Positions 61,353 to 63,819 of a stretch of DNA of 64,000 nucleotides are shown in pieces. Positions within the stretch are counted from its first letter, which is position 1. The number at the start of each line of letters is the position of its first letter. The notes beneath the pieces were generated by a model. The model was not told where the DNA came from. It saw only the letters and a list, made by a program, of their open reading frames with translations, and made no database searches. A program made the position numbers and the translations under genes. The DNA is from Candidatus Heimdallarchaeota archaeon (GTDB taxonomy: Archaea; Asgardarchaeota; Heimdallarchaeia; Heimdallarchaeales; Heimdallarchaeaceae), in contig JAEOSZ010000066.1 in NCBI GenBank assembly GCA_016840095.1, positions 55,850-119,849 of the forward strand. The letters are read 5' to 3'.

Positions 61353-61380
61353 ATGTAAAACTACAGTCTACGGCCTCTAC
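61353..61380 (-). repeat. Remnant of rps11 3' end, proximal copy
   Basis: 61361-61380 (ctacagtctacggcctctac) matches the rps11 end at 63067-63086 (ttacattctacggcctctac) at 18 of 20 positions. Confidence 0.92.
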
Positions 61381-62522
61381 AGAAGCGTTTGTTTTTCGTA
61401 CTCAATCCCTTTCTTCAGTAGTTGTATTTTCATGACTAGATTATCCACAATTTCTTGTTTCTCTTCTGTTTTCTTTTCCTTTAATCCAGAGATAATCTCT
61501 TGACTTGCTTTAGCAATTATTCTTTCTTCCTCTTCAAACATCCCTTCCGCTTTCCCATACAGGCACCAGAACTCCACCCTCTCCGCCACTTTCGGATACA
61601 CTTTCAAATCCTTCTCCTTGAATATCGCTTGAGTAGATCTCTTAGCATCGATGATTCTTTTCGTATTATTTTCGTAGTATACAACTATTTCAGGTTGAAT
61701 CCAAGACTGTTCTTCAAGTTCAGGAGTATCTATTTTAGGTTTCCATTTCCAATCTAAACCATCTAACAAAACCTCAGCTATCTCTTTACACAGCTCTTCC
61801 CACTTGTAAGCAGTAGTATTAGTAAACCAACAAGCTTCAGCTTCTTTATGTCTATAGAGATGACTAGGATCAGCAAAACCTCTACCACAATCCTCACAAA
61901 CAAAAGGTTTCTCATCAGTATGCATGGCTATGATATGTAACTTCAGTCCTCGAGCATGAGGAAATGCAGAATCACATTCTTCACAAGCATAGGGTCGATG
62001 GTTTTGATGAACAACTCGAACATGGTCATTAAGATGACTGCGAAGTTTGAAGGCAAAACCACATTCTTCACAAACATATTGCCGTTGGTCTGTGTGAATA
62101 GCGGTAATATGTTCTTTCAAGTGTTGAGGAAGTTTGAAAGCATCTCCACATTCCTTACAAATGTGAGGACGAAGATTTTGATGAACCGATTTAATGTGAC
62201 GTTCCAGATTATCTTTTCGAAGGAATTTATCATCACAAAGAGAGCATTTGAAAGTTTTTTCTTGATTATGAACGGAATTAACATGGCGTCTGAGAGAAGC
62301 AAGTTGAGTAAATGATTCATTGCAAATCTCACAAGAATACTTAATGCCAAGATGTTTTTCCTTGATATGTCTATCAAGAATATCTTTACGTTTAGTAGAA
62401 AAAGAACAATGAGGGCACTCAAAAGGTTTTACGGTAGAATGAACAGAATCTTGATGACGTTTAAGATTGGACTTTCGAGTAAATTTCTTCTCACATTGAT
62501 TGCATTCAAAACTTGTACTCAT
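61377..62522 (-). CDS. 8x C2H2 zinc-finger array fused to a putative PD-(D/E)xK nuclease domain
   Basis: Seven C2H2 fingers and one C2HC finger with TDEKP/QNxRP-type linkers, followed by KWEELC..IA (helix Glu), QPEI and IIDAKRS. Confidence 0.85.
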   Translation of the reverse strand: MSTSFECNQCEKKFTRKSNLKRHQDSVHSTVKPFECPHCSFSTKRKDILDRHIKEKHLGIKYSCEICNESFTQLASLRRHVNSVHNQEKTFKCSLCDDKFLRKDNLERHIKSVHQNLRPHICKECGDAFKLPQHLKEHITAIHTDQRQYVCEECGFAFKLRSHLNDHVRVVHQNHRPYACEECDSAFPHARGLKLHIIAMHTDEKPFVCEDCGRGFADPSHLYRHKEAEACWFTNTTAYKWEELCKEIAEVLLDGLDWKWKPKIDTPELEEQSWIQPEIVVYYENNTKRIIDAKRSTQAIFKEKDLKVYPKVAERVEFWCLYGKAEGMFEEEERIIAKASQEIISGLKEKKTEEKQEIVDNLVMKIQLLKKGIEYEKQTLL

Positions 62523-62525
62523 CTT

Positions 62526-62975
62526 TCATTCTTCCTTTATAGAATGTATTAACCTCATATGATCTTTCAGATGATGAGGTAGTTTGAAAGATTCATCACA
62601 GATTGCACAGATATGGGGTCTAATATTCTGATGAACACCTCTAATATGTCTTTGAAGACTATCTTTTCTTTTGAAAGATGCATCACATTGATGACATTCG
62701 AAACTCGCTGACTTGTTATGTACCGAATTTAGATGTCTGCTTAGATGAGATTGTTGTTGGAAAGATTCCTCACAATAGTTGCACTTGTACATTCGTTGTT
62801 TTTCATGAACTTGCCTGATATGACGACCAAGATTATCTTTTCTAGAAGTTGTAAAATCACATAAATTGCAGAAATAAACAGTTTTTGATTTATGTACAGA
62901 GTTAATGTGTCTATTCAATGAATCCTTTCTTGTAAAAGTCTTTTTACATTTATCACAAGAAAATCTGTTACTCAT
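62526..62975 (-). CDS. 5x C2H2 zinc-finger protein without a nuclease domain (paralog of fingers 1-5 of the adjacent gene)
   Basis: Five CxxC-x12-HxxxxH units with helices RKDSLNR, RKDNLGR, QQSHLSR, RKDSLQR and LPHHLKD. Confidence 0.92.
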   Translation of the reverse strand: MSNRFSCDKCKKTFTRKDSLNRHINSVHKSKTVYFCNLCDFTTSRKDNLGRHIRQVHEKQRMYKCNYCEESFQQQSHLSRHLNSVHNKSASFECHQCDASFKRKDSLQRHIRGVHQNIRPHICAICDESFKLPHHLKDHMRLIHSIKEE

Positions 62976-63005
62976 TTGGTATCAACTATATATCAAGAAA
63001 ACGGA

Positions 63006-63012
63006 ATATAAA
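63006..63012 (-). promoter_or_regulatory. TATA box for the zinc-finger operon
   Basis: TTTATAT on the minus strand, ~31-37 nt upstream of the ATG at 62975. Confidence 0.45.
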
Positions 63013-63024
63013 CCCAAATAATAC

Positions 63025-63048
63025 AAAATAAAAAAATAAATAAAAAAA
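63025..63048 (-). terminator. Oligo-T terminator downstream of rps11
   Basis: T-runs on the minus strand ~20-40 nt after the rps11 stop codon. Confidence 0.45.
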
Positions 63049-63066
63049 GGTAAAAGTGCAGAATAT

Positions 63067-63819
63067 TTACATTCTACGGCCTCTACGGCCACCTTTGCGC
63101 CTACAGCCATCGTGCGGGAGAGGTGTCACATCTTCTAGTCTTAGTATTCTCATCCCTGACCTCTTTAGTGCTCTTAATGCTGCTTGTGTTCCTGGTCCTG
63201 GAGTCCTGTTCTTATGTCCTCCTGGAGCTCTATATCGCACATACAGTTGATACACACCTTTTGATTGTGCTTCTTGTGCTGCTGCGTTAGCTGCTTTCAT
63301 TGCTGCGTAAGGGCTTGATTCATTTCTGTCTGCTTTAACGAACATTCCTCCGCTTTTACGACTGAAGGTTTCAGCGCCAGAGATGTCGGTGATGTGAACG
63401 ATTGTATCATTGTAACTGGAAAAGATATGAGCAACACCATATTTAGAATCTCTTCTTCTGGTTCTAGCTCTTGCTTCAGAATCAGGTTTTTTCTCCTCTG
63501 CAGCTTTTTCATCTTTAGGAGCGTCTTCCTTAGGTTTCTCTTCTTTAGCTTTGGTTTCTTTGGCATCTGCTTTGGGTTTATCTTCCTTAGGCTTGTCTTC
63601 CTTAGGCTTGTCTTCCTTGTCTTCTTTAGCTTTAGTCTCTTTAGGTTTCTTTGTCTCAGCTTTCTTTTCTTCCTTAGGAGGCTCTGGTATATCTTCTTTT
63701 TTAGCAGTAGTCTTTTTCTCTTTCTTAGGAGCTTCAACTTTCTCTTCTGCTTTAGGAGTTTCAGTCTTTTCCTCTTTCTTCTTAGTTGGTTCTTTCTTTT
63801 CTTTTTTATCTTCGCTCAT
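63067..63819 (-). CDS. rps11: 30S ribosomal protein S11 (uS11) with long K/E/P-rich N-terminal extension
   Basis: [35 protein letters not shown] and [21 protein letters not shown] motifs; AGGTGA SD at 63824-63829. Confidence 0.96.
63111..63125 (+). promoter_or_regulatory. Predicted binding site of the 5-finger protein inside rps11 (CGT GCG GGA GAG GTG)
   Basis: The C2H2 code for F5..F1 gives CGT GYG GGA GAG GYG; the sequence here is cgtgcgggagaggtg. Confidence 0.75.

Follow-up and report, generated by a model that had tools for sequence, protein, structure and literature searches.

The window analysed here, a 64,000-nucleotide stretch from the end of contig C49 in a Heimdallarchaeota assembly of 3.44 Mb, carries an element directly behind rps11, the gene for ribosomal protein uS11. 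The element comprises a gene for a five-finger C2H2 zinc-finger protein without a nuclease (the solo gene), a gene for an eight-finger array joined to a domain of predicted PD-(D/E)xK fold (the nuclease gene), and a replacement for the end of rps11 (Table 1). The locus is real, and very probably a homing element that combines a zinc-finger nuclease with allele-specific protection of itself. With equal confidence, we take it to be a free-standing homing element, built on a natural zinc-finger nuclease and engaged in an arms race over the synonymous rps11 spellings of the peptide T-P-L-P-H-D/N-G-C-R. Comparison across loci showed that each element brings its own last ~21 rps11 codons, which its nuclease fingers are predicted to mismatch and its solo fingers, if it has them, to match, and that tail and fingers were swapped between hosts. 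A sequence-only reading of this DNA had proposed a zinc-finger-nuclease drive homing into rps11. The two C2H2 open reading frames (ORFs) that it placed directly 3' of rps11 were both present; it gave the five-finger gene no role, yet this gene provided the strongest signal of the locus.

To relate the fingers to their targets, arrays were paired with the rps11 allele of their own locus at 35 distinct loci, using a recognition code fixed in advance. In the textbook C2H2 code, Asn at helix position 3 reads A, His, Lys or Arg reads G, and a small or acidic residue reads a pyrimidine. One genome, G010, was excluded from the statistics since it had an altered site peptide and a broken nuclease. At the 18 loci with a solo gene, all 77 decodable fingers of the solo arrays matched the own allele (null, 28.0 ± 6.4; maximum of 54 in 20,000 shuffles), and the result was the same for nine dereplicated types (38/38; null, 13.9). 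Solo fingers 1 to 4 scored 69/69 in the true register and 14 to 25 of 69 in shifted or reversed registers. At position 6 of solo finger 2, Arg was found with all 13 CTN-Leu alleles and a residue other than Arg with all 5 TTR alleles. The nuclease fingers avoided their own allele, as had been proposed: fingers 1 to 4 gave 17 self matches out of 93, where 36.5 ± 3.9 were expected under the null. When only Asn, His and Lys were counted, the match to the own allele was 42/42 for the solo fingers and 0/35 for nuclease fingers 1 to 4. We regard this opposition of predicted contacts within one register as a firm result. Antiparallel reading of triplets by helix positions -1, 3 and 6 appears to hold here, as judged by covariation only.

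The helices of all eight nuclease fingers were the same as those given in the sequence-only reading. Across the 35 loci, positions -1 and 6 of nuclease fingers 1 to 4 were near-constant and lay opposite constant codon bases. Position 3 was variable in the fingers opposite four-fold wobbles (1 to 4 and 7); the fingers opposite two-fold codons (5, 6 and 8) had His there in nearly all cases. A wobble-free scaffold of the array had its single best match in the whole assembly at the 24-bp site within rps11, with 1 mismatch, and the paralogous solo arrays fitted in this register only; the target and register proposed earlier are thus supported. A direct comparison of the resident site with the sequence predicted earlier gave 7 differences, all synonymous, and the resident site likewise had 7 mismatches to the full nuclease prediction. 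No better target for the nuclease was found elsewhere in its own assembly, where the best sites had 5 mismatches. The specific susceptible allele that had been predicted was not found. No allele with CTA or CTG at the target Leu was present in 24 genomes of the genus, and one was found only in G028, which belongs to another genus. These codons made up 108 of 153 upstream Leu codons versus 0 of 35 at the target; they are also the predicted preference of most nucleases. Finger 2 more likely reads CCC, since the solo arrays have Ile at position 3 opposite G. In about half of the alleles, Asn replaces Asp within the site.

The 15-mer predicted for the solo protein of the window had its only perfect match in the 3.44-Mb assembly inside the resident site, and this protein is probably a shield of the resident allele, given how its fingers covary with that allele. 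Solo genes accompanied 13 of 16 CTY alleles and 5 of 17 TTR alleles, loci that are not independent of one another. The lower number of solo genes with TTR alleles fits an intrinsic resistance of these alleles to those nucleases, 30 of 32, that carry Arg at the contact facing the target Leu codon. Four-finger solo proteins occurred mostly with CAT (8/10) and five-finger ones with CAC (7/8); the lone five-finger case with CAT had Asn at position 3. Reading of the Gly/Arg repeat itself by the fingers was ruled out, as the best site of all 18 solo arrays was in the T-P-L-P codons.

The rps11 tail itself bears marks of replacement. Diversity at four-fold codons was 0.73 in the site and 0.30 upstream, with the jump at the Val/Thr codons, where the breakpoints between close hosts were also located. 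For example, G012 and L109 differed at 1 position in 312 upstream bases and at 16 in the last 60, and the pairs G021/L100 and G001/L114 had the opposite pattern. The target allele was nearer to that of the finger-array neighbor at 19 loci and nearer to that of the host neighbor at 4. Together with the breakpoints, these counts bear out the claim that a replaced rps11 tail moves with the fingers. In Mantel tests, the correlation with the host was 0.47 for the nuclease domain and 0.10 for fingers 1 to 4. Because the domain tracks the host more than these fingers do, many events seem to have swapped a rival element by a crossover within the nuclease gene.

The duplicate of the rps11 3' end reported in the sequence-only reading was recovered (61361-61380 matched 63067-63086 at 18 of 20 bases, with 0 matches in 100 shuffles), but a third copy had been overlooked. 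The end of rps11 is thus present at 63067, 61361 and 60530; the latter two copies share 27 identical bases (60522-60548 and 61353-61379) and enclose an ORF of 248 amino acids. In genome G018, the site is empty and rps11 is followed directly by the thioesterase gene; its DNA is 93 to 95% identical to the sequence after the tail copy in G012, G013 and L103. Because G018 matches the DNA that follows the tail copy, the downstream copy is the displaced old end. In the longest displaced tails (G009, G012, G001 and L106), the first codon is that for Lys, equivalent to 63094-63096 and five bases beyond the finger-8 triplet, which agrees with the insertion point just past finger 8 that had been suggested. 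The locus is not an assembly artifact, because two other samples of the study contain identical contig pieces across the junctions: piece X3 (62978-63360) spans that between rps11 and the zinc-finger genes, and piece X2 (60422-61540) spans both downstream tail copies. No contig that joins the two flanks without the element was found, a blank that carries no weight as evidence.

The nuclease array consists of seven C2H2 fingers and one C2HC finger. In both arrays of the window the fingers are tandem repeats of the C-x2-C-x12-H-x3-5-H class, joined by short linkers and with a period of 28 to 29 residues, and they matched PF00096 with E values of 3.5e-35 and 1e-29. For the C-terminal domain, no family was returned by Pfam, the PDB sequence search or the Atlas features. 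The residues pointed out earlier as resembling a nuclease motif (E242, P277-E278 and D292-x-K294) were invariant in 30 aligned homologs, and all 30 complete nuclease ORFs that were parsed retained the catalytic-type motifs. A first structural model, from close homologs alone, was poor, with a predicted local distance difference test score (pLDDT) of 62. A model from 47 diverse homologs reached a pLDDT of 89 and a predicted template modeling score of 0.85. Its top matches included EcoO109I (E = 2.5e-4). The best VIA match was AF1548 (Z of 9.0, root mean square deviation of 4.2, 124 aligned residues), with Can1 at 8.9 and FokI at 6.7. The Foldseek and VIA-align lists were led by restriction-fold nucleases (EcoO109I, McrC, Bax1, R2 endonuclease, Can1/Can2 and FokI). 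The PD-(D/E)xK fold proposed earlier is therefore supported by the model and its best structural matches, all of that fold, and the domain would accordingly be a putative nuclease.

The close nuclease family had 32 members. Of 24 other genomes of the genus, one genus of the Heimdallarchaeaceae, 20 had the domain, directly behind rps11 in all but one. None was detected among 36 genomes from related genera, and a profile search of 301 genomes of the phylum gave four further distant matches. The same domain also occurs on non-C2H2 repeat arrays in proteins of 520 to 630 residues at other loci of the genus (L087, L088, L090, L091 and L092). Distant homologs (P0035-P0083, L177, L178, L180 and L181) have up to nine C2H2 fingers with different helices, and those with a taxon name come from Heimdallarchaeota, Promethearchaeota or unplaced Asgard archaea; since their helices differ, the family has probably been retargeted many times. 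In G010 (L077:423-2430), the nuclease gene has an internal TGA, and the rps11 end has four amino acid changes at otherwise conserved positions. This state reflects either decay or an assembly error; a broken nuclease would be expected of a homing life cycle. No relatives were found in viral contigs, and no carrier was identified.

An eight-finger paralog of the nuclease (43%) lies beside a FixX-type ferredoxin gene in G012:C175 (L086:4371-5528), where a duplicate of the ferredoxin 3' end lies at a distance of 2.65 kb. The two best code matches of the paralog in 20,000 positions were the homologous stretch of both copies, and its fingers fit the codons of the Cys motif. Close element-free alleles matched at up to 14 of 17 contacts and the resident allele at 12 of 17, in one case, found post hoc. 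A broken relative was seen at the same ferredoxin gene in G014:C170. G018 (L062 and L136) has neither the rps11 element nor the ferredoxin tail duplicate, and its site alleles at both loci are those of occupied genomes, as if elements had been lost and immune alleles kept. On balance, we lean towards a re-targetable Asgard zinc-finger nuclease family that acts by cyclic replacement of synonymous alleles in an essential gene, with steric shielding of each allele by a finger array that lacks a nuclease, attack and defense both using the C2H2 code of eukaryotes, and with retargeting to at least one more gene.

The proposed homing would run as follows. When donor DNA and another rps11 allele meet in one cell, the nuclease would cut that allele a few bases beyond finger 8. 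One crossover of the repair would lie within rps11 and upstream of the site. On the other side, a crossover in the conserved nuclease domain or in the flank would replace a rival element, and one at the old tail would push that tail downstream, leaving tail copies and trapping cargo. The solo protein would sit on the resident site and block rival nucleases, and perhaps its own. Spread mainly into empty sites, as first proposed, was not borne out, as the majority of sampled sites hold an element and the mosaic pattern suggests that rival elements were replaced.

Several observations weigh against homing with self-protection. Fingers 5 to 8 showed no self-specific avoidance (35 matches; null, 33.4) and have similar mismatches to almost every allele. 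With a register shift of one codon, the nucleases, whose loci are related, gave z = +4.1; kinship alone can therefore yield a large z, and the nuclease z of -5.0 and its p-values are overstated. All sampled alleles had at least 2 mismatches to any nuclease, as in the pair of the G022 nuclease and the L105 allele (2 predicted), and at least 5 to that of the window. As no allele fits well, the susceptible allele is either unsampled or extinct, or the enzyme tolerates mismatches; the self-avoidance of fingers 1 to 4 on top of the mismatches of fingers 5 to 8 suggests a mismatch-tolerant enzyme. The correlation of the target with fingers 1 to 4 was weak overall (Mantel r of 0.08), and the link between them rests on nearest neighbors. 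The nuclease domain has PE where PD is expected, and several distant homologs do have PD there. A solo gene is missing from about half of the occupied loci (15 of 33). Both element-free members of the genus carry alleles like those at occupied sites, which partly bears out a finding named beforehand as one that would speak against homing, namely element-free relatives with the same codons: the G018 allele equals that of G013, and the G004 allele is close to those of G000 and G024. The G018 allele has 3 to 5 predicted mismatches to its best-fitting nucleases. In our view, these members would have lost the element and retained an immune allele. Empty alleles had also been expected to end in RGRRL, with Leu, and all 35 alleles of the genus end in Met.

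Exclusion instead of invasion, in which the nuclease mainly destroys incoming rps11 alleles from other strains, the locus thereby resists replacement and the tail swaps arise from ordinary recombination and selection, would explain self-avoidance and the shield equally well. It would also suit the high occupancy, with few empty sites to invade, and the presence of a different rps11 allele in a sister sample. However, it does not account for displaced tails that begin right behind the finger-8 triplet, for the clustering of left breakpoints where the site begins or for a second gene with the same insertion anatomy, and we consider it unlikely. The exact fit of the solo protein to a self site overlapping that of the nuclease could also point to an addiction module, in which the nuclease cuts its own rps11 unless the solo protein covers the site, loss of the cassette is lethal and mobility comes from elsewhere. 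An order of antidote gene and then toxin gene is typical of such modules and is the order seen here. The solo-less loci, the avoidance of self by the nuclease fingers and the apparent loss of the genes from G018 and G004 make this very unlikely. Equally hard to sustain is the idea that both proteins are domesticated regulators that bind the rps11 end and control transcription by autoregulation or termination, with an inactive nuclease-like domain. With the solo site ~135 bp upstream of where the solo gene starts, autorepression is possible and compatible with shielding, and the PE in place of PD would suit inactivity. But a host regulator is expected to match its own site and not to avoid it, the hypervariable wobble bases and tail swapping would have no reason, and distant homologs conserve the acidic residues and the lysine; we find this highly improbable. 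Least credible is insertion by an integrase or transposon with target duplication and zinc-finger genes as passengers: the three short direct repeats of a gene 3' end in the window resemble its outcome, but no integrase or transposase was found among the ORFs of the interval, the repeats have eroded and no longer equal the resident tail, and passenger genes would show no base-by-base covariation with the site, so that the covariation of fingers and alleles largely refutes it.

Among known systems, the homing element proposed here is closest in anatomy to the mORF elements of fungal mitochondria (Allomyces macrogynus atp6; Glomus atp6, atp9, cox2 and nad3), in which an endonuclease ORF supplies a foreign in-frame 3' end and the native end is displaced downstream (PMC3630166). 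ORF-less alleles are the target there (PMC3630166), and an element-free allele exists here as well, in G018. The Glomus enzymes are of the LAGLIDADG or GIY-YIG type, whereas here a C2H2 array is joined to a PD-(D/E)xK domain in an archaeal chromosome; the nuclease protein had no LAGLIDADG or GIY-YIG match in Pfam, and its predicted fold differs. A further difference is that many rival specificities occur at one site together with a separate self-reading protein. The seg/mob genes of phage T4 ("intronless homing") are alike in that an intergenic gene cleaves a conserved neighbor with co-conversion of the flank (PMC2988022), cleavage being a prediction in our case. They differ in having GIY-YIG or HNH enzymes, cleavage hundreds of bases from the gene and a route through phage co-infection; they lack a modular finger code, and no shield is described in that review (PMC2988022). 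In Asgard Tn7-like elements, TniQ proteins with C2H2 fingers likewise use eukaryote-like arrays to guide a mobile element to a conserved gene (10.1101/2025.07.27.667033). In the present case, neither a TniQ domain nor TnsABC genes were found among the ORFs between rps11 and the thioesterase gene, there is no 5-bp target duplication, and the array is fused to a nuclease fold.

Engineered zinc-finger nucleases, C2H2 arrays fused to FokI, share an N-terminal array read by positions -1, 3 and 6 and a C-terminal restriction-fold domain just past the last finger. The protein described here is natural, its domain is not that of FokI at the sequence level (the structural match has 13% identity), and it has one 24-bp site (a second half-site was not searched for). 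The R2 retrotransposon protein also combines zinc fingers with a restriction-like endonuclease, which was among the structural matches of our domain, and is a natural zinc-finger-guided restriction-fold nuclease directed at a conserved ribosome gene. In contrast to R2, the 381-residue protein is filled by the fingers and the nuclease domain, with no room for a reverse transcriptase, and allele replacement would take place at the DNA level. No description of the nuclease family or of a self-reading shield was found in the literature searched, whose coverage mostly leaves out subscription papers. Wu et al. 2022 (PMC8813620), considered as a possible description of the element, does not mention zinc fingers and was rejected.

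If our reading is correct, the element would be a natural counterpart of the engineered enzymes, with a compact domain (~150 residues) that has no Pfam family. It would also mean that the C2H2 code of eukaryotes operates in an Asgard archaeon, with dozens of evolved finger-triplet pairs whose predicted sites are known. A shield that covers DNA against rival homing nucleases would be a type of immunity for which the searched literature gave no description. The locus further points to genetic conflict as the driver of tandem finger arrays in the lineage nearest to eukaryotes, which bears on the later expansion of fast-evolving arrays. As a caution, this genus has a mosaic rps11 3' end.

Table 1. 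Features of the rps11 locus, in positions of the window
Feature	Position	Strand	Remarks
rps11 (uS11), host gene	63067-63819	minus	PF00411, E = 5.6e-43; one copy in this genome
Replacement tail of rps11, element-borne, last ~21 codons from the Val codon	63067-63129	minus	from breakpoints and neighbor comparison
Site facing the eight nuclease fingers, 24 bp	63102-63125	plus	self allele, mismatched
Site of the five-finger solo protein, 15 bp	63111-63125	plus	self allele, predicted exact fit
Putative cut and insertion zone	63087-63101		finger-8 triplet to Lys-Gly-Gly codons; cut itself predicted
Solo five-finger C2H2 gene, 149 amino acids	62526-62975	minus	no nuclease
Nuclease gene, 381 amino acids	61377-62522	minus	eight-finger array, residues 7-231; predicted PD-(D/E)xK-fold domain, residues ~232-381
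Displaced rps11 tail, copy 2, and T-rich tract	61353-61380	minus	overlaps the nuclease stop codon
Cargo ORF, 248 amino acids	60530-61276	minus	hydrophobic segments at N and C termini
Displaced rps11 tail, copy 3	60522-60548	minus	27 bp identical to copy 2
Nucleotidyltransferase-like gene	59986-60423	minus	variable; not at the empty site
AAA ATPase gene	59414-59956	plus	variable; not at the empty site
Acyl-ACP thioesterase gene	58544-59308	minus	conserved right flank; directly after rps11 at the empty site

The cargo ORF had no Pfam family above the cut-off and a homolog of 41 to 46% on another nuclease-bearing contig, L099. In G004, cargo was present and the finger genes were absent. The last codons and stop of the cargo ORF are tail copy 3, read in frame, which gives it a basic tail behind a hydrophobic segment; this use of the copy may be the reason for Leu, not Met, in both copies. 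The nucleotidyltransferase-like and AAA ATPase genes were patchy in relatives, with homology to the empty site of G018 resuming near 59350, and may be older cargo. A promoter and terminator scan gave results at the chance level, with a bacterial model applied to an archaeal host. At the other end of rps11, uS11 has an N-terminal extension of ~120 residues (63450-63819) that is rich in Lys and Glu, repetitive and very variable in length across the genus.

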